DNA of 64,000 bases, taken from the sequence record OR776998. One strand, given 5' to 3'. Below, piece by piece: positions 1,506-48,125 of the stretch. The notes under the pieces are model-generated. The model made no database searches and had not been told where the DNA came from. It saw only the letters and a program-made list of their open reading frames with translations. This DNA comes from Escherichia phage YX22. The first letter of the stretch is position 1, and the number at the start of each line of letters is the position of its first letter. The position numbers were made by a program, and so were the translations under genes.

Positions 1506-2621
1506 TTATGCATCCAGTTTGTTCAGGCGTTGTTGGGCAGCATTATAGAAGTGCTCTGCCAGTTTACAGACGTTGTCGGGGCGCTGAATGTTGTTCCCGG
1601 CGCGGATATCCTTCTTCAGGACTTCCACCGCATCGGTCGCCACCATCTCTTCGGTGACCTCAACCTTCTCGGCAGCAACAGTAATCGTCCGGTCGATGAA
1701 GTTGTAGTCAATGCACTTACAGCGCTTCATGGCATCATAGAACTTTTCATAATGCTTAGCATTGTCACGGTTCTGTACAATAACCTTAACAATTTGCCCT
1801 TCAATACCCAAGCCTGTGTTCAACCATTCCGGGTCGATCCAATTACCTTCTTCATCAGAGGACAACTTGGTGTAATCATATTCCACATAGCGGAACAGCG
1901 TCTGGTGCTCGGCGTTCGGGATAAAGATCTCACCACCACGCATGTCGTCCACATAGAAGCCACGGTTAGTGCCGTCTTTGTAGTCTTCCCAGTTCAGGTG
2001 ATATGGAGTCCCAATATATTGAATGTTACCTTCCATCGAACGGGTATGGAAATGGCCCGTGTCGACCCTGGTAAACTTGGAAAGCAGAGCAACGTCGATC
2101 TGACCGTGATCACAAGTAGAAGACTGGTACATTTTGAACCCCGCCAGCTCCAGATGCGCAAAACAGTACTCGGCGTCTGTATCTTGTATCGCTTTAATAG
2201 ACGCATCATAGTTCTCCTTGTTGATCCAAGGCAGCAGCAGAGTCTTGACACCCTCGATCATCACTTCGGTCGGTTCGCTGTAATAGCAGTACACATCCGG
2301 GTCGAGTTCGTTCAGGTAGGATGGCCAGTTGATGCGGTTGGACTCTTCCAGGGTGATGTCATGGTTGCCCACGATGCCATTCCACTTGATACCAGCCGCT
2401 TTCAACGCAGGGGTGAGTTCATCCTTCAGCCAGTCTTTGTCGCGCCCGTACATGAATTTGCGGACATCAAACGTATCACCGAACTGCCAGACCTCTTTGA
2501 TATCAGAGTCGGCAAGTTCAGGAATGAAATAATTGATGAGATAGTTCTTGATGAAGTCGCGAACGTATCGAGAACCATTACGGCTCCCGATATGCAGATC
2601 GCCAATTTTAGCAATCGCCAT
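1506..2621 (-). CDS. 47: gp47-like recombination nuclease subunit (Mre11/SbcD calcineurin-like phosphoesterase)
   Basis: 371-aa ORF with phosphoesterase motifs GDLHIG, GDTFD, GNHD and GHFH; ATG start; order 55-47-46 as in T4. Confidence 0.9.
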   Translation of the reverse strand: MAIAKIGDLHIGSRNGSRYVRDFIKNYLINYFIPELADSDIKEVWQFGDTFDVRKFMYGRDKDWLKDELTPALKAAGIKWNGIVGNHDITLEESNRINWPSYLNELDPDVYCYYSEPTEVMIEGVKTLLLPWINKENYDASIKAIQDTDAEYCFAHLELAGFKMYQSSTCDHGQIDVALLSKFTRVDTGHFHTRSMEGNIQYIGTPYHLNWEDYKDGTNRGFYVDDMRGGEIFIPNAEHQTLFRYVEYDYTKLSSDEEGNWIDPEWLNTGLGIEGQIVKVIVQNRDNAKHYEKFYDAMKRCKCIDYNFIDRTITVAAEKVEVTEEMVATDAVEVLKKDIRAGNNIQRPDNVCKLAEHFYNAAQQRLNKLDA

Positions 2622-3399
2622 TGTTCTTTTTCTCCCGTTCTTCTAATCTTTGTTTGAGGGCTTCCCAATCTGGTTCCATCGCACAGATATCATCTTCCAG
2701 ATTGAATTGGGTTTTGCCGAAGTCTTGATCTGAATTGTCTTCGGCCTGCGCTGTTACCGTATTCTTAGCCTGCGCCATGTATTGAAGTATGCCTTTCGCA
2801 ATCTTTTTATTCGATTCTGCGAGACGAGCTGCCTCCACCTTCTCTCGCTCCTTCTGCCTTTGAGCGTCCTTTTTGTTCTCAAAGTTGCCGATACGTTCAC
2901 GGAAGTCCATGCCAATTCCTGTAGCATCAACAAAGACCTCTTGTTGGAAGTCGGGATCGTCTGCCAGGCCTGCGAACCCACCCGCCTCTTCAAATGAGCG
3001 CAATTTAATGTACGTGTGCTCTTCTTCGATATTCAGTTTACGAGCGAATGATCGATCAGCACACATGGTCACCCAAGAGAAGAAGTTGATCTTCCCTTTC
3101 TTTCCAATGTGTTCGACGTCAAATGTGTGGAGGTAACGCAGGATGTTGACGATTGCTTCAGAGACCATGTCTTCACGGAAGGGATAATCGCGATAGTTGT
3201 AGCGGGTACTCATCTTGGTGATGATGCGCTGGACCTGCAGAGCAACATAGTTGGGGATCTTTGGAAGCCTGGTGCCCTCAGCAAGTGCTTTCTTGCGAGC
3301 AGGGATCCAATCACGAAGGATACTAATGACACGCTCGTTGTCTTCGTCCGTGAAATATTTGACGACATTCTCCCCTCTGTCCACGAAGTTCATTCCCAT
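2608..3399 (-). CDS. 55: gp55-like late-transcription sigma factor
   Basis: Segment ITKMSTRYNYRDYPFREDMVSEAIVNILRYLHTFD matches the T4 gp55 core pattern (RFNFSGY...FD) recalled from memory; position upstream of 47/46; GAGG about 9 nt upstream of the ATG. Confidence 0.7.
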   Translation of the reverse strand: MGMNFVDRGENVVKYFTDEDNERVISILRDWIPARKKALAEGTRLPKIPNYVALQVQRIITKMSTRYNYRDYPFREDMVSEAIVNILRYLHTFDVEHIGKKGKINFFSWVTMCADRSFARKLNIEEEHTYIKLRSFEEAGGFAGLADDPDFQQEVFVDATGIGMDFRERIGNFENKKDAQRQKEREKVEAARLAESNKKIAKGILQYMAQAKNTVTAQAEDNSDQDFGKTQFNLEDDICAMEPDWEALKQRLEEREKKNNGDC

Positions 3400-3410
3400 T
3401 ATGATAGTCC

Positions 3411-3938
3411 TCAGATACCGATAAATTCATCAAAAGATCCAACAACCTTCTTCACCGAGATCTTGTCATTCTCAATCAGGAAGTTGCTGTCGTTTTTGGC
3501 TGCTGTAGCCCAGTCATCGGCAAGTTCGTTGCCTTCGTGTCCCGCATGACCCTTAACCCATTTTAGTTCAACATCACAAATTGAACAAACGAGATCATAG
3601 ATTCTGAACAGATCTTTGATGAGTTCAACGTTCTTTTCTGGGAAACCCTGATACTCCCACTTCGTTCGCCATTCGGTGACACTCTTGATGGCATATTGGC
3701 TGTCAGACCAAATTGTTGCCTTTGGTATTCTGCGCTCACCCTTTCCTGAGAATGCCCACAGTAGCTTCAATGCGTTGGTCACACCCAACAACTCGGCGAT
3801 ATTGTTAGTGGACGGGGGAGGTAGATGACCGAAGAACACCTTCCATTGCATACCCGTTATTGGCCTGATGACAAATGCCCAGCCTGCGGCCTGGTTGGTC
3901 TTCGGGTTAGAACCCCCGTCAGAATAAATTTCTATCAT
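3411..3938 (-). CDS. Ribonuclease HI (RNase H type 1 fold)
   Basis: Internal ATG at 3938 gives MIEIYSDGGS...; motifs SDGGS, NNIAELLGV, SDSQYA and WVKGHAGHEGNELADDWA closely match E. coli RNase HI (TDGS, TDSQYV, WVKGHAGHPENERCDELA). The upstream part of the 207-aa track ORF is probably not translated. Confidence 0.85.
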   Translation of the reverse strand: MIEIYSDGGSNPKTNQAAGWAFVIRPITGMQWKVFFGHLPPPSTNNIAELLGVTNALKLLWAFSGKGERRIPKATIWSDSQYAIKSVTEWRTKWEYQGFPEKNVELIKDLFRIYDLVCSICDVELKWVKGHAGHEGNELADDWATAAKNDSNFLIENDKISVKKVVGSFDEFIGI

Positions 3939-3940
3939 GA

Positions 3941-3952
3941 TATAAATATCCC
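3941..3952 (+). promoter_or_regulatory. Late-promoter-like element TATAAATATCCC on plus strand
   Basis: Exact T4 late core TATAAATA followed by CCC, about 32 nt upstream of the plus-strand ATG at 3984 (RBS AGAGGAA). Confidence 0.5.
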
Positions 3953-3983
3953 AAACTGGTTTTATAGAAAGAGGAATGAAACT

Positions 3984-4751
3984 ATGGCACCCCGCGCATA
4001 TCGTTTCAGTCTCACCGCCCCGCAGATTGAGCAATTGCTCCTCTCTATCTATGATGCTATCAAGTCAGAAGATATCATCTATGATTATGCTGCAGGTGGG
4101 ACTGCTGGACAAGTCGCAGCAGCTTCTGCTGTCAAGAACATGTGGTTGAAGCTCAACGAGATGGTGACAGGCCAAGGTCTCAAAGATGCCATCAACGATG
4201 CAGAAGACAGCAACGTGTTCACCGACTATTATAAGTCTTTACTGGATCGCGAAGGCTGGAAATTTATTGGATCTCCAGCAGATGAACTTCAGCGAGGCGA
4301 CATCGATACCTCGAACTTCAAAGGTGGTGAGGTCATTCTACTTCAGAAGAACGCTTCAGGCAACCCAGAATTCCAATACTGGAAGCGAACCCCTGTTGCT
4401 GGGGGTGATCCTACCTTTGCATGGGCTTCGGTCTATGAAGGGAACTCTAATGATTCCAGCATAGAGATTCCCGTGGTTGGCACCAGCGTACTCAAGGACA
4501 TCCCCAAGGCACTCTTCCATATGATCGAGTTCAGAGTGCATGTCTACGATGAGACACTGGGTCATTGGCAAGACACCGACGGGAAGGTGGGGTATCGTGG
4601 CGAGGATCTGATCTACAGTGTATACAACCATATTCAGACCAAACCTCTCGCCACCATTGACTTCAGCCAAGATACGGACAATATGACGGTTTCTGTGACG
4701 TCGTTGGAACCGAATGTCAAGTGCCATCTGTCCTTCGTTGCGGGTTACTAA
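3984..4751 (+). CDS. Hypothetical protein, probably late-expressed (possible virion protein)
   Basis: Internal ATG at 3984 (MAPRAYRFSLTAPQIEQ...) preceded by AGAGGAA and the late-promoter-like element. Protein-like composition, while the N-terminal extension of the track ORF is antisense to the RNase HI gene. Lone plus-strand gene in a minus-strand block. Confidence 0.55.
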   Translation: MAPRAYRFSLTAPQIEQLLLSIYDAIKSEDIIYDYAAGGTAGQVAAASAVKNMWLKLNEMVTGQGLKDAINDAEDSNVFTDYYKSLLDREGWKFIGSPADELQRGDIDTSNFKGGEVILLQKNASGNPEFQYWKRTPVAGGDPTFAWASVYEGNSNDSSIEIPVVGTSVLKDIPKALFHMIEFRVHVYDETLGHWQDTDGKVGYRGEDLIYSVYNHIQTKPLATIDFSQDTDNMTVSVTSLEPNVKCHLSFVAGY

Positions 4752-44528: not shown

Positions 44529-46739
44529 TCACCGTCTCAGCCATTCTTCCATAGACATACCAGAGCGTTCATCATAAACCTGAATTCCACCGAACCCTGA
44601 GATGTTCTCCACAGAGTGAGGATCTGGCGTCGACATCATACCCCCAAATGGTAGCATCTGAGATTCTTCCATCGCAGACAACCGTCCTCTCATGTCCACA
44701 GAGATATTTGAATTGGTGAGATCACTAAACCATTCTTGTTTCACCGCCCATGCATACAACACGAGGGGCATTACACAGTCATCATGACAACCATCATCGG
44801 CTTCATACCTTGTTCCAGTCCATACGAATGTACTGAGTTCATCTATCGTGTCCTGGTCATCTATCACCAGCATTTCACGTTCAATCAGGGCTTTCAGGTT
44901 GGCACAGCCGTTTGTGCGCACCTTCTTGTTGGTATTGATACCAGGTTCAGGGCGGCGACCACCGATTCTCTTGCCTGTACCCTTGGTATCTGTTGTGGTG
45001 AAGATGATCTCTGGATATTCAATTTCTTGGTATAGAATTGTGATTACCTGACCACCCACGTCGTTGTTGGTCTCGACTAGCATCGGGCACGTTCCATACT
45101 TCTCACCCATATCGGCGATTGTGTACGCATACATCATTGGAGGTATCGTGTTATTTCGATACTTGGCTGCGATCTTGTGAGGATAGTCTGTGATGTCGAT
45201 AATGGTCAGCACAGAATAATCCCCTTCGACACCCTTGCCTGTATCTGCGATACCCATATAGATGCGCTTAGGATCGTAGTCGTGATAAATCTTGGTGAAC
45301 TCGTTCGGCTCCTGATACAGCTTCGAGGTCATCTTGTCCAGACACTTGGCAGGTATCAGTGATCCCACAGAACCACGGAACTTAATGCCAAATTCTTGAT
45401 CGAAACGTGCATCACCCAGCTTCGCCCTTTGTTTGGATTCCCAGTCTGGATCTTTGGTGTACGTTGGAACACGATACCATGGGACCTCGGTGAGTTTGAA
45501 GTCGTTGTATTGTGGGTGTTCTGGGTTCGCCTTGGTGACGATGTCGTAGAACAACCCGCGCTGACCTTTCGGCGTACTGGTCAGAATACAACGTGAAGTC
45601 TCTGCAGATGCAATCGCCGGGAATGTAGACTCCCAGAATTCAAAGTCGTTTTCAATGAACGCCACTTCGTCCACATACAGGAGCGATACAGATCGACCAC
45701 GGATGGAGTCGGAAGATGTCGCATAGGCGTAGATCTTTGATCCGTTTTCGAACTCTATCAGCGTGGAACCGAACTTCTCACAACCCTGTTGGAGGAAGAA
45801 TGGCAAATCTTGATATGCTTTGCGAATACGATCTAGGATTTCAATCGCCTGCTTCTCTTTGTTCGCCAGTACTGCGATCTCTTTGTCGGAGTGGAACATC
45901 GCATACCAGAGCAGGAACGCTGCCACGACAGTCGTGTTGTGGCTGAGGAAGCCGTTGGTGTAGTAGCGCTGATCACTAGATTTCACCTGTAGGTCATACA
46001 TGTGATGCGTCTCACCAGTCTGCCAAACCTCACGGATTTCTTCTGGACCTTCTGACGTCATGATGTATGACCCAGCATTCAGGTCTTTGGCAAATATCTC
46101 CTTCATTTCCGGAGTGAAGAATATATGTTCGTCGGCCACGTTAATTCGCCGCCCAGTAACAGTCACAATAACGAATTCCGCATATTTCTTCGTCTTATGC
46201 GCTGCGATAACCGGAACCCAGCCACTATCGGATTGCACAAAGTAACGTTTGCCGAAGCGGCTGTCCACGAACTTGTCATGGTTGCCAATGGTATTCAGCG
46301 GCACAGCGTGGTTGACGTCCTCGAAGCGGCTGTGAAGCTCCCCTATGGTCAGGAGCAACTGCTCTTGGCTGAGAGTATCGTAAACTGTGACAAGCGTGTC
46401 ACCTTTTACACATTTCCCAGACTGACGAGCCTGGACGACCGCATTGAATCGATAGTCCTGGAAGTCATGGAACAACTGCTTCTGGTAATCGTGCATGTCA
46501 AAGAGGATGAAGCCTTTATCGATGGTCGTGATCTTGTAGTAGTTGGCGGCGAAGTAATGGGCGTCCATCGCACACTCGACGAACTCCGATTCTTGTTCGT
46601 CGGTTAGCATCAACTCCACACGAGGTGCACGCACAGACGGCTTGCGCATGAACGTTTGGTCCATACGCAGTCTGACGTCTTCTGTCTTAAACCCCGTCTT
46701 GAGCGGGGCGTATTCTACATCACGCTTCTGATACGCCAT
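44529..46739 (-). CDS. 17: Terminase large subunit gp17, interrupted by a mini-intein
   Basis: Track ORF starts at GTG (46748); ATG at 46739 (MAYQKRDV...) with AAGGAAGAAGGTG upstream. Exteins join as ARQSGK|TTVVAAFLLW, matching T4 gp17 Walker A SRQLGKTTVVAIFLAHF; C-terminal nuclease region matches T4 (HDDCVMPLVLY versus HDDLVMSLVIF). Confidence 0.9.
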   Translation of the reverse strand: MAYQKRDVEYAPLKTGFKTEDVRLRMDQTFMRKPSVRAPRVELMLTDEQESEFVECAMDAHYFAANYYKITTIDKGFILFDMHDYQKQLFHDFQDYRFNAVVQARQSGKCVKGDTLVTVYDTLSQEQLLLTIGELHSRFEDVNHAVPLNTIGNHDKFVDSRFGKRYFVQSDSGWVPVIAAHKTKKYAEFVIVTVTGRRINVADEHIFFTPEMKEIFAKDLNAGSYIMTSEGPEEIREVWQTGETHHMYDLQVKSSDQRYYTNGFLSHNTTVVAAFLLWYAMFHSDKEIAVLANKEKQAIEILDRIRKAYQDLPFFLQQGCEKFGSTLIEFENGSKIYAYATSSDSIRGRSVSLLYVDEVAFIENDFEFWESTFPAIASAETSRCILTSTPKGQRGLFYDIVTKANPEHPQYNDFKLTEVPWYRVPTYTKDPDWESKQRAKLGDARFDQEFGIKFRGSVGSLIPAKCLDKMTSKLYQEPNEFTKIYHDYDPKRIYMGIADTGKGVEGDYSVLTIIDITDYPHKIAAKYRNNTIPPMMYAYTIADMGEKYGTCPMLVETNNDVGGQVITILYQEIEYPEIIFTTTDTKGTGKRIGGRRPEPGINTNKKVRTNGCANLKALIEREMLVIDDQDTIDELSTFVWTGTRYEADDGCHDDCVMPLVLYAWAVKQEWFSDLTNSNISVDMRGRLSAMEESQMLPFGGMMSTPDPHSVENISGFGGIQVYDERSGMSMEEWLRR
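45936..46412 (-). mobile_element. Mini-intein (159 aa, Hint domain only) inserted in the terminase Walker A motif
   Basis: Begins with Cys immediately after GK (CVKGDTLV...) and ends with HN before Thr (...GFLSHN|TTVV); block-B-like GRRINVADEHIFF; no endonuclease domain by length. Confidence 0.8.
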
Positions 46740-47427
46740 TGTCTTCACCTTCTTCCTTCGGCTGCGGCTCGGCCTGAACGTCGATTACATCTTCTTCGGG
46801 TTCAGGTCCTTTGGACGCAGCTTTCGCTGCAGCACGTTCTTCAGCACGTTTACGGGCGTCTTCGATGGTCTTCAGTAGATCACGGGAAGACCTGGCCTGT
46901 TTACCGACGTTGACCGTGGTTGTGCCATCAGGGGACGTGGTGACCTCGACGGTTGTTTCATCTCCAGGAGGTGGCTCTCTGTCGCCCGTGACCGCCTTGA
47001 TAGTTTTCTGGTTCTCCATCAGGTCTTTGTTCAGGCCGCGCATGAGTTCACCCAACTCTTTGAAGACTGTAAAGGCACGGGGTGCTTCAGTCGTCGTCGC
47101 AAGTTTGGCTGCCTGTCCCATCATGAACATCGTGGCTTCCTGCATGGCATAAGTCGTGTCACGGATGCGTTTGTAGTCGGTGGTGGCATCAGTGTCTTCG
47201 AAGTCTGGAACCTTAGACTCCTTGGGCTTCAGCTCTTCTGGGTCCAATGAAGGAGGAAACACCACAGGCTCATACCCCGCAGGCTTTTCACCCAACCATT
47301 CGCCTGTATCCGGATCGTAATCTTTTCCGGCCATAGGCGAGGTCTTCTCCATGACTTCTTGAGCGACCTCATCCCGCGCTTGGATAGCACTGAGGGTGGA
47401 TAATAGGCGTTCTGACATAGCACTCAT
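46720..47427 (-). CDS. 16: Terminase small subunit gp16
   Basis: Track ORF starts at TTG (47433); ATG at 47427 (MSAMSERLL...) with GGAG 8 nt upstream; central DYKRIRDTTYAMQEATMFMMGQAAKLA parallels T4 gp16; overlaps the gp17 start. Confidence 0.7.
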   Translation of the reverse strand: MSAMSERLLSTLSAIQARDEVAQEVMEKTSPMAGKDYDPDTGEWLGEKPAGYEPVVFPPSLDPEELKPKESKVPDFEDTDATTDYKRIRDTTYAMQEATMFMMGQAAKLATTTEAPRAFTVFKELGELMRGLNKDLMENQKTIKAVTGDREPPPGDETTVEVTTSPDGTTTVNVGKQARSSRDLLKTIEDARKRAEERAAAKAASKGPEPEEDVIDVQAEPQPKEEGEDNGVSEA

Positions 47428-47429
47428 AA

Positions 47430-48125
47430 TCAATCTCCAGGATGATGTACACCGTCTTTGTCAACACGGAACCACTCCGGCAGTTCCGTCCACGGTGTTT
47501 TCAAATCATTAGACATTTCGATAATTATCTCTTTGATCCCGTTAGGATCCCCGCCTCCCTCGTTGTCCACCCAATAGTCATACCCGTAGATGAAGCCGCT
47601 CAGCTGGAACATGAAGGAGCAGTCGACGTGTGGTGAATCAGAAGCATCCCCTTCCCAGTTATCGGACATCTGGTGGCTGACCAGTTGGATCTTGATCTTC
47701 TGGTCTTGCTGTAGTGTATCGTTGTCCTTGATACCACAGTCTAGAGAGGGAGTGAATACCGAATAAACCTGCTCTAGCACCTGTAACATCTCAACTAATT
47801 TCTTGGTTCGGATATTGTACTCAAAATCGATAATCAGGGGGATTCGCTGCTTCGCCCCTGCTGTTGGTGTCGATTGTCGATTGTGGTACGTCTTCGTCAC
47901 CTGTTTGTTGATCTCAAACTGACCAAAAGAGAAGGTCGCAAATGGAAGCATGTTGGACGGCACGTTCCTGTTGAGGTCATTGCGTCTCCCGATGGCCATG
48001 TGTAATGGGACTTCCATAAGACCACGCTCTGTGTTCACCTTCAGATCAGACATAATGGTGGCAAACAGATTGATGTATTTCATCAATGAATCATGGTAGA
48101 AGTAATTTTCAAATGGTCTGGCCAT
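47430..48125 (-). CDS. 15: Tail sheath stabiliser/tail completion protein gp15
   Basis: 231 aa; N-terminal FYHDSLMKYINLFATIMSDL parallels T4 gp15 (FYNSSFRRYATLMGDLFSNI); position 13-14-15-16. Confidence 0.7.
   Translation of the reverse strand: MARPFENYFYHDSLMKYINLFATIMSDLKVNTERGLMEVPLHMAIGRRNDLNRNVPSNMLPFATFSFGQFEINKQVTKTYHNRQSTPTAGAKQRIPLIIDFEYNIRTKKLVEMLQVLEQVYSVFTPSLDCGIKDNDTLQQDQKIKIQLVSHQMSDNWEGDASDSPHVDCSFMFQLSGFIYGYDYWVDNEGGGDPNGIKEIIIEMSNDLKTPWTELPEWFRVDKDGVHHPGD

Follow-up and report, generated by a model that had tools for sequence, protein, structure and literature searches.

The interrupted large terminase gene

The window, i.e. the whole 64,000-nucleotide stretch of phage DNA analysed here, encodes on its minus strand a large terminase (TerL) of the T4 gp17 type, recognised in profile searches by its Terminase_6N (E=2.8e-17) and Terminase_6C (E=1.2e-6) matches. 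In its longer form the open reading frame (44529..46748, minus strand, 739 aa) begins with a GTG at 46748; judging from the homologues, which are 735-738 aa long and begin MAYQKRD, the ATG at 46739 is the more likely start and gives a protein of 736 aa. The frame reads ...VVQARQSGK-CVKGDT...GFLSHN-TTVVAAFLLWYAMF, with an in-frame insert of 159 codons (477 nt) between the Lys and the Thr of the Walker A motif. When the insert is removed, the terminase aligns with T4 gp17 (PDB 3ezk) ungapped across the junction, RQSGKTTVVAAFLLWYAMF versus RQLGKTTVVAIFLAHFVCF. A first-pass annotation of this DNA had placed a mini-intein splitting the Walker A motif of gp17 at 45936-46412; its coordinates and its length of 159 aa are right to the base and, given the ungapped alignment, so are its statement that excision restores a canonical P-loop and the T4 comparison that it quoted. 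The calculated masses are 84.5 kDa for the precursor, 66.3 kDa for the ligated exteins (about 66 kDa had been predicted for the spliced terminase) and 18.2 kDa for the intein. The insert is not a chance pattern, since it matches intein profiles and recurs in 309 phage records. The features of the locus are as follows.

44529..46739, minus strand: precursor CDS of the gp17-type large terminase TerL, 736 aa, ATG start at 46739
46413..46739, minus strand: N-extein, 109 aa, ending with the first half of Walker A (ARQSGK)
46026..46457, minus strand: recombinant patch of ~430 nt, of Kuttervirus 'allele X' type within an Agtrevirus-type gene
45936..46412, minus strand: predicted class 1 mini-intein, 159 aa, Cys1 to Asn159, supported by profiles, alignments, a structural model and a RefSeq homologue
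46410..46412, minus strand: Cys1 codon, block A nucleophile, invariant in 24 of 24 intein-bearing homologues
46125..46136, minus strand: block B, A-D-E-H (intein residues 93-96), with the invariant His96 and Ala for the canonical Thr of TxxH
45936..46001, minus strand: blocks F and G, MYDLQVKSSDQRYYTNGFLSHN (intein residues 138-159, including Asp140, His158 and Asn159)
45933..45935, minus strand: Thr+1 codon, encoding both C-extein residue 1 and the Thr of Walker A GK(T)
44529..45935, minus strand: C-extein, 468 aa plus stop, comprising the remaining ATPase domain and the RNaseH-like nuclease domain

Assignment of the insert to the class 1 inteins

The insert is very probably a class 1 mini-intein, predicted to be self-splicing and to consist of a HINT domain only, located in the T4-type TerL P-loop of an Agtrevirus-like phage of the Ackermannviridae. 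With TIGR01445 (intein_Nterm) it scores 25.1 against a cut-off of 24.5, and it matches Pfam Intein_splicing with E=1.6e-8; two further scores lie narrowly under their curated thresholds (Pfam PF14890, 34.9 vs 35.8; TIGR01443, 14.1 vs 15.6). The solved structures matched by sequence (Cat, CDC21, VidaL, gp41-1 and GyrA) are all inteins. C1, the block B motif 'AD.H', M138/D140 and LSHN are invariant in the alignments; for Cys1, the block B His, the block F Asp and the C-terminal His-Asn this holds in 24 homologues, and Thr+1 follows the intein in 24/24, so that the Cys1, the C-terminal His-Asn and the Thr nucleophile noticed in the first-pass annotation are all present and conserved. Cys1 provides the Cys or Ser expected at position 1 of block A in class 1 inteins, and blocks F and G and the C-terminus likewise conform, with M138-Y-D140 and LSH158N159 followed by T+1. 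Block B contains the expected His96 but deviates at the Thr position, which is Ala family-wide (A-D-x-H); the alignment with VidaL (PDB 6vgv) has an identical Ala. The pairing of Cys1 with Thr+1 is one of the less common ones, accounting for ~12% of pairs (PMC11766414).

The AF2 model of the intein (pLDDT 94.7, pTM 0.87) folds as one all-beta HINT domain containing two short helices. In a Foldseek search against the PDB the best 50 matches are all inteins or BIL domains, headed by VidaL 6vgv (E=4e-11, TM 0.76/0.83), confirming the HINT fold for the model. Pfam finds HINT-type families only and no homing endonuclease domain within the 159 aa, as the first-pass annotation had argued from the length, and the gap between His96 and Met138 is only 41 residues, as in a mini-intein, for which a size of about 130-200 aa is typical. 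Class 3 inteins lack a nucleophile at position 1 and have an obligate block F Cys and a WCT motif (PMC2807308), whereas here Cys1 is present, is the sole Cys of the intein, and block F (MYDLQV) contains none. Mycobacteriophage Bethlehem DnaB/TerL1-c are named as class 3 examples. Bacterial intein-like (BIL) and Hedgehog-type HINT domains have no C-terminal Asn paired with a +1 nucleophile, and they cleave instead of splicing. Assignment to the BIL or Hedgehog type is contradicted by the invariant His-Asn|Thr and by the Foldseek ranking, in which BIL2 structures appear 31st or lower. A search of all six-frame ORFs of at least 60 aa in the window with a family HMM returned the TerL copy only and no second related intein.

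The two slightly sub-threshold profile scores, the Ala in place of the block B Thr and the phiD3 record, in which the homologue is annotated as a 'pretoxin HINT domain protein', would also suit a degenerate HINT insert that is tolerated as an insertion domain, or cleaved in BIL/Hedgehog style, without splicing. This is extremely improbable. Every residue that full splicing requires (C1, the block B His, the block F Asp, His-Asn and Thr+1) is retained without exception even between alleles as little as ~35% identical, and VidaL, for which a crystal structure has been solved, aligns with the same block B Ala. Moreover, the insert splits the P-loop at GK|T and, as the T4 alignment indicates, a split loop cannot function; cleavage without ligation would destroy an essential enzyme, yet the phages propagate (>250 isolates). 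A native insertion domain devoid of splicing residues, raised at the outset as an alternative, was looked for among the relatives, and every one that bears the segment retains those residues.

Relationship to known terminase inteins

The TerL intein itself is already known, being annotated in RefSeq and reported in genome announcements. The RefSeq entry of Klebsiella phage Magnus (NC_049462) has a 477-nt mat_peptide named 'intein', and TerL inteins have been reported for Magnus and in the genome announcements of Salmonella phages Maynard and Marshall. These are orthologous to the window intein, with the same gene, the same Lys|Thr insertion point, the same size (477 nt/159 aa) and the same splicing residues, and their amino-acid identity to it lies between 56% and 97%, varying with genus and allele. 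Unlike those orthologues, the window carries the allele designated 'X', and its intein is chimeric, with Agtrevirus-type last ~27 codons. What is added here is the kinship to split TerL inteins, and a Kuttervirus-type patch that shows exchange of alleles between genera. In the searchable literature, we found no report of experimental splicing for a TerL intein of the Ackermannviridae.

Of all solved structures, those closest in sequence and fold belong to the naturally split 'atypical' TerL inteins and their relatives, a group formed by AceL-TerL, GOS-TerL, the consensus intein Cat (PDB 6dsl) and VidaL (6vgv). Members of this group share the block F/G signature MYDL.V.S..HRYYTNGILSHN|[TS] with the window intein, and they too are inserted directly after the P-loop GK, mostly in Terminase_6N proteins, although identity to Cat and VidaL is only ~19-25%. 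In 89 of the best 145 representative matches the protein starts with a segment corresponding to intein residues ~47-159, the earlier residues being absent, which makes this segment the long IntC piece of a split intein of the atypical type. In contrast to the arrangement that defines the split group, with a short IntN and a long IntC made as two polypeptides and spliced in trans, the window intein is contiguous, encoded in one ORF and predicted to splice in cis; the loop at which its relatives are split (residues ~33-46, modelled with the lowest confidence) is unbroken. The window intein is therefore related to the atypical TerL inteins that are split in nature, but is itself contiguous. Because it is a contiguous, mesophilic relative of split inteins that are used in protein labelling, it is a candidate scaffold for protein engineering.

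More distant parallels exist. The mycobacteriophage inteins TerL1-a/b (Kelley et al. 2016, PMC5050341) likewise lie between the invariant P-loop Lys and the nucleophilic Thr, so that splicing is needed to form the active site, but the host proteins are of the terminase_1 type rather than T4-type terminase_6, and some mycobacteriophage TerL inteins have active homing endonucleases while others are class 3, as opposed to the endonuclease-free class 1 intein of the window. The Lys|Thr position in the P-loop has been called a 'classic' intein insertion site, and the TerL inteins tested splice readily, those at other insertion sites having spliced in a reporter assay (PMC5050341). In the T4-related Campylobacter phage vB_CcoM-IBB_35 the large terminase gene is likewise interrupted by an intein, but it also has an intron with an HNH endonuclease (PMC3322345), nothing like which is present in the window; tblastn with the window intein finds Campylobacter phage records at <60% identity.

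Distribution and selection

In at least four Ackermannviridae genera, nearly all cultured members carry the intein. Intein-less relatives, a comparison proposed in the first-pass annotation, do exist: in P0015-P0019 and Erwinia phage Bue1, where gp13 to gp20 are arranged in the same order, the site shows a clean 477-nt gap and the protein an unbroken ARQSGK|TTVV. In a neighbour-joining tree of the exteins, intein-bearing and intein-less alleles are interleaved. The intein dN/dS of ~0.1-0.2 indicates purifying selection, the between-genus values being only partly informative owing to saturation of synonymous sites in several comparisons, and the non-synonymous rate of the intein is 2.5 to 10 times that of the exteins. 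An intein-only word-index search gave just two matches, one of which is a stand-alone 'intein' entry from Maynard/Marshall; as this index evidently retrieves embedded domains poorly, we relied on a full-length TerL query and an exhaustive HMMER search.

A recombinant intein allele

The window intein is, by its sequence, a chimera, Kuttervirus-type in its N-terminal four-fifths and Agtrevirus-type in its C-terminal fifth. The Kuttervirus-type patch starts ~15 codons before the end of the N-extein and runs ~130 codons into the intein, leaving the last ~27 intein codons Agtrevirus-type. Informative sites within the patch are Kuttervirus-like in 104 cases and Ag3-like in 11, as against 73 and 303 outside it (Fisher p=1e-44). 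The patch allele, X, occurs at 93-99% nucleotide identity in some Kuttervirus phages, but its identity is only ~73-78% to the alleles found in Taipeivirus (Magnus) and in the other Agtrevirus phages. Selection was considered as an alternative to recombination for the close match of the intein to Kuttervirus, and was ruled out because synonymous divergence drops within the patch: dS relative to Kuttervirus is 0.16 there and >2 elsewhere in the gene (>2.4 in the flanks). A Kuttervirus-type patch in an Agtrevirus-type gene thus indicates that recombination swaps intein alleles between genera, and the chimeric intein is evidently viable. Since allele X is a foreign patch within Kuttervirus too, it may have passed from Kuttervirus to the Agtrevirus-like lineage, or from a third donor to both.

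A free-standing NUMOD3 endonuclease, which some Kuttervirus and Taipeivirus phages encode in the interval from gp16 to gp17, could in principle have brought the allele in trans, by cutting endonuclease-free terminase loci whose repair would co-convert the nearby intein. We therefore compared TerL from endonuclease-positive and endonuclease-negative Taipeivirus and Kuttervirus phages, considering all records with a NUMOD3 gene between gp16 and gp17. SenALZ1-type Kuttervirus phages, which share their intein allele with the window, do have a NUMOD3 endonuclease gene of 882 nt immediately before TerL, as is the case in 22 phage records in total, and there are signs that the adjoining N-extein has been co-converted, with 85% identity to SenALZ1 in Trex versus 79% in Magnus. 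However, the endonuclease-linked signal ends in the N-extein: in Trex, a Taipeivirus with the endonuclease gene, the intein is still of the Taipeivirus type (94% identity with that of Magnus, 72% with that of SenALZ1), and endonuclease-driven co-conversion of the intein was rejected on this ground. The gene is also absent from most Kuttervirus phages with this intein allele (e.g. rabagast) and from the window between gp16 and gp17. In the window, everything before codon ~95 is of Agtrevirus type, and the patch therefore does not reach towards the place occupied by the endonuclease gene. Delivery of the allele by an endonuclease acting in trans is accordingly very unlikely, and recombination between genera remains the preferred reading.

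The exchange of an endonuclease-free mini-intein between phage genera by recombination provides a natural example of intein persistence and movement after loss of the homing endonuclease. The current understanding of inteins is unchanged by these results.

Splicing and the nature of the element

Translation of the gene would yield an 84.5-kDa precursor in which the P-loop is split and which therefore should neither bind nor hydrolyse ATP. Splicing would begin with an N-S acyl shift at Cys1, helped by block B His96, after which the N-extein would move onto the hydroxyl of Thr+1; cyclisation of Asn159, assisted by His158 and the block F Asp140, would then release the intein, and an O-N shift would re-form the peptide bond. 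The predicted end products are a 66.3-kDa terminase with a contiguous ARQSGKTTVV and a free 18.2-kDa intein. VidaL is an active intein. We infer that splicing occurs, and does so efficiently, from the facts that the terminase is essential, that the phages are viable and widely isolated, and that VidaL and Cat/AceL-TerL are experimentally active. That packaging ATPase activity depends on splicing, as proposed in the first-pass annotation, is soundly deduced; for the mycobacteriophage TerL inteins the same dependence was reached by inference (PMC5050341).

The first-pass annotation went further and saw in this dependence a potential regulatory checkpoint, which is speculation that the present data do not support. 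Slow or conditional splicing at the Lys-1/Thr+1 junction could, with a low probability, set the onset of the packaging ATPase. Such a conditional intein, spliced slowly or in response to a cue (redox, temperature, DNA or the small terminase) and thereby timing the terminase ATPase, would be maintained by selection for timing, beyond the impossibility of clean loss. This could explain why an endonuclease-free intein persists in nearly all cultured Ackermannviridae and why alleles have repeatedly been swapped by recombination instead of the intein being lost. Its presence in almost all cultured members of at least four genera, in spite of saturated synonymous sites between them, its location in the catalytic P-loop and the weaker nucleophilicity of Thr+1 relative to Cys or Ser are compatible with this view, and a role of TerL and other P-loop inteins as sensors has been speculated upon (PMC5050341). 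We nevertheless consider a conditional intein quite unlikely. Close relatives include phages with intein-less alleles, which on the tree are mixed among the intein-bearing ones, and the element is therefore dispensable for this terminase type. A disulfide trap has no internal partner for Cys1, because this residue has no other Cys in the intein to pair with. The faster non-synonymous evolution of the intein relative to the exteins, and the fact that alleles just 72-79% identical swap between genera, suggest a passenger rather than a tuned regulator, which the pattern of rates and allele interchange fits better.

The intein is thus best read as a selfish passenger. Imprecise loss from this site would be lethal, and the element would now spread and be exchanged solely via homologous recombination in the highly conserved flanks that encode the P-loop. 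For phylogenies based on TerL there is a practical consequence, as the intein inflates the apparent divergence of the terminase and has a history of its own, distinct from that of the rest of the gene. As for annotation, the product is best recorded as a terminase precursor, and the intein as a mat_peptide within it. In many sister records the name given is 'terminase large subunit', 'hypothetical protein' or even, in the one record of phiD3, 'pretoxin HINT domain protein'.

A mini-intein splits the P-loop of the large terminase

The large terminase (TerL) is encoded by a single long intein-bearing ORF (44529..46748, minus strand) that matches the Terminase_6N (E=2.8e-17) and Terminase_6C profiles and lies between genes for a T4 gp16-like small terminase and a gp18-like tail sheath. 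The mechanical ORF call begins at GTG 46748 (739 aa). Because the homologues start with MAYQKRD, all at an ATG matching 46739, three codons downstream, the true start is probably that ATG, giving a predicted product of 736 aa; at its start TerL overlaps the small terminase ORF (46720..47433) by ~20 nt. Around the insert the product reads ...FNAVVQARQSGK-CVKGDTLV...YYTNGFLSHN-TTVVAAFLLWYAMF...

45936..46412, minus strand: insert of 159 aa, from the translated ORF

These coordinates and this length, obtained here from the TerL translation, are those of the first-pass annotation, which had read the segment as a mini-intein interrupting the Walker A P-loop. Removing the 159 aa in silico does restore a canonical P-loop, as had been claimed: the shortened protein aligns with T4 gp17 (PDB 3ezk, E=3.5e-72) and the alignment is gap-free at the junction (RQSGKTTVVAAFLLWYAMF in the window vs. 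RQLGKTTVVAIFLAHFVCF in T4). Calculated from ATG 46739, the precursor has a mass of 84.5 kDa, the ligated exteins 66.3 kDa and the intein 18.2 kDa.

In profile searches, the isolated insert matches Pfam Intein_splicing with E=1.6e-8 (34.9 bits, slightly below the 35.8 cut-off), NCBIfam intein_Nterm with 25.1 bits (above the 24.5 cut-off) and intein_Cterm with 14.1 bits (below the 15.6 cut-off), and its PDB sequence matches are inteins only (Cat, PabCDC21, VidaL, gp41-1 and Mxe GyrA). The proposed splicing residues, Cys1, the terminal His-Asn and Thr+1 of the C-extein, are all present in the window and kept in 24/24 homologous terminases with a same-site insert, down to an intein identity of 34%. 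Also invariant in alignments of homologous inteins are A-D-x-H of block B, Met138 and Asp140 in block F, as well as a Tyr and the Thr of the YYTNG motif. The sole deviation from the textbook motif is Ala instead of the Thr of TxxH in block B. This Ala is constant across the whole family and aligns with the same residue in VidaL (PDB 6vgv), an active intein. Searched against the PDB with Foldseek, a very confident AlphaFold2 model built on the alignment of homologous inteins (pLDDT 94.7, pTM 0.87) has inteins or BIL domains as all of its 50 best matches, led by VidaL (6vgv, E=4e-11, TM 0.76/0.83). The insert is a mini-intein, since no endonuclease family was detected by profile search of the isolated insert and no more than 41 residues lie between the block B His and block F, in keeping with the earlier view that it is too short for a homing endonuclease domain. 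With Cys1 present and no Cys in block F, it belongs to class 1 (class 3 as defined in PMC2807308).

Both the observation and its interpretation as an intein are thus correct, but the feature is ordinary, and it is already known and annotated in sister phages. RefSeq NC_049462 (Klebsiella phage Magnus) has an 'intein' of 477 nt annotated as a mat_peptide at the corresponding place, and in the Magnus announcement the large terminase is said to contain one ('harbors an intein element'; PMC6763660), as it is in those of Salmonella phages Maynard and Marshall (PMC3868846, PMC3853055). A stand-alone entry 'intein [Salmonella phage Maynard/Marshall]' is 76% identical to the window intein. For a Campylobacter phage, a TerL intein has been on record since 2012 (PMC3322345), and the Lys|Thr P-loop position has been called the 'classic' insertion site (PMC5050341). 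The word 'intein' is absent from a 2024 Ackermannviridae review (PMC11721090), and the searchable literature apparently holds no splicing experiment on this intein, nor its kinship with atypical split inteins or an inter-genus exchange of its alleles.

Splicing and the packaging ATPase

The best-supported account is that the precursor of an essential enzyme undergoes ordinary class 1 protein splicing, and that the P-loop would form only once the exteins are ligated. Given the position of the insert, we infer that ATPase activity would require splicing; the same dependence has been inferred for mycobacteriophage TerL inteins, for which splicing was shown in a reporter assay (PMC5050341). The further suggestion that the intein is a regulatory checkpoint for packaging is unlikely, and nothing supports it. 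The one Cys of the intein has no partner for a redox trap, closely related phages have functional intein-less alleles, and divergent intein alleles are interchangeable.

Distribution of the intein

The window phage is an Agtrevirus-like member of the Ackermannviridae. Across the TerL gene, Escherichia phage LHE287 is 99.5% identical, and RPN242, A221 and AV101 98-99%. When a 300-nt junction-spanning query from an intein-less allele was run against the phage collection, it matched as two pieces over 777 nt (query plus the 477-nt insert) in practically all Ackermannviridae records taken from along the hit ranking. Among them, Erwinia phage Bue1 (genus Nezavisimistyvirus) alone departs from this pattern: its intein-less TerL of 580 aa reads ARQSGKTTVVAAF. 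Five metagenomic clusters (P0015-P0019; 74-84% identity to the window exteins) are likewise uninterrupted; for two of them, source contigs of up to 119 kb show the same gene order as the window (gp13-gp14-gp15-gp16-gp17-gp18-gp19-gp20) and a clean 477-nt gap relative to its DNA. Comparison with intein-less relatives bears out the insert.

In a neighbour-joining tree of the exteins (no bootstrap values), alleles with and without intein are interleaved, in enterobacterial phages and in related Vibrio phages, which is only suggestive of the patchy distribution typical of a mobile element. Sequence change is faster in the intein than in the exteins (for example, 70% vs. 93% identity for homologue P0006), and the intein is under purifying selection, as dN/dS is 0.1-0.2 where estimable.

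Three records deserve mention. In the 'partial genome' of Klebsiella phage KFM-TASP06 (PV588648, L013, locus 2329-4605) the TerL region has no annotated CDS, and the junction query spans 935 nt vs. the usual 777 nt, implying an extra ~158 nt near the intein that may reflect a further insertion, or else a frameshift or a fault in the assembly. OR844942 (H163), labelled 'Enterococcus phage Efm 3-10', contains a Kuttervirus-type intein-containing TerL and is for that reason probably a mislabelled or contaminated entry. In Dickeya phage phiD3 (KM209228, H135), the intein has led to TerL being misannotated as 'pretoxin HINT domain protein'.

A recombinant patch of Kuttervirus type

In codon-aligned comparisons, the window exteins are of Agtrevirus type (88-94% nucleotide identity to Ag3 and SW16-7, 71-84% to Kuttervirus SenALZ1), whereas codons ~98-241 match Kuttervirus SenALZ1 and rabagast at 94-100% identity and Ag3 at only 64-82%.

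46026..46457, minus strand: Kuttervirus-type patch of ~430 nt

At informative sites, where Ag3 differs from rabagast, the window sides with Ag3 303 times and with rabagast 73 times outside the patch, vs. 11 and 104 times inside it (Fisher p=1e-44). Selection as the cause of the patch identity is excluded, because window-rabagast dS drops from >2.4 in each flank to 0.16 within the patch. From its start in the conserved N-extein stretch that codes for the P-loop, the patch runs to ~27 codons short of the intein C-terminus, so that the window intein itself is a chimera of two alleles. The Kuttervirus-type allele is also foreign within Kuttervirus: PhaxI and LPEK22 have 98% identical exteins and 79% identical inteins, and rabagast and LPEK22 share 97% identity up to codon ~94 and 73% within the patch. 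This recombinant origin is a modest bonus beyond what had been seen in the window alone.

A free-standing NUMOD3-type homing endonuclease gene (882 nt) lies between gp16 and gp17 in 22 phage records of Kuttervirus and Taipeivirus, with 94-100% nucleotide identity among copies across these records; it is absent from the window at the gp16/gp17 boundary (46720-46748).

L002 1306-2187: NUMOD3 endonuclease gene, locus of Salmonella phage SenALZ1
L005 3001-3882: NUMOD3 endonuclease gene, locus of Klebsiella phage Trex_ER12

We rejected this endonuclease as driver of the intein swap, as Trex, a Taipeivirus that has the gene, retains an intein of Taipeivirus type, and the gene is missing from most phages carrying the allele shared by the window and Kuttervirus. 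N-extein identity to SenALZ1 is 85% for Trex and 79% for endonuclease-free Magnus, and the N-extein adjoining the gene looks co-converted. This points to an inter-genus exchange at the terminase locus driven by the endonuclease, as an event distinct from the intein swap.

Relationship to atypical split inteins

HMMER, run exhaustively against 1.84 billion representative proteins, returned 707 relatives of the intein. Among the first 60, 36 are Terminase_6N proteins, and others include ClpB-type AAA, DnaB and ABC ATPases; in nearly all relatives examined the C-terminal junction ...LSHN|[T/S] comes right after the P-loop GK. Among the best 145, 89 match intein residues ~47-159 only, at the very N-terminus of the protein, a pattern that marks naturally split inteins whose N-fragment is short and whose C-fragment is long. 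Such inteins form the 'atypical' AceL-TerL/GOS-TerL/Cat group used in protein engineering (PMC11766414), and this kinship agrees with Cat and VidaL as best PDB matches. The members of that group are split, whereas the window intein is contiguous and predicted to splice in cis; the loop at residues ~33-46, the split site in its relatives, shows the greatest variability and the lowest model confidence.

In four Vibrio-phage terminases (P0066 from VP-1, P0083 from K469, P0076 and P0053), the ATPase-domain ORF, with or without a P-loop intein, lacks the Terminase_6C nuclease domain and runs in frame into a GIY-YIG/NUMOD3 endonuclease domain; in these phages an endonuclease gene appears to have separated the two domains of TerL.
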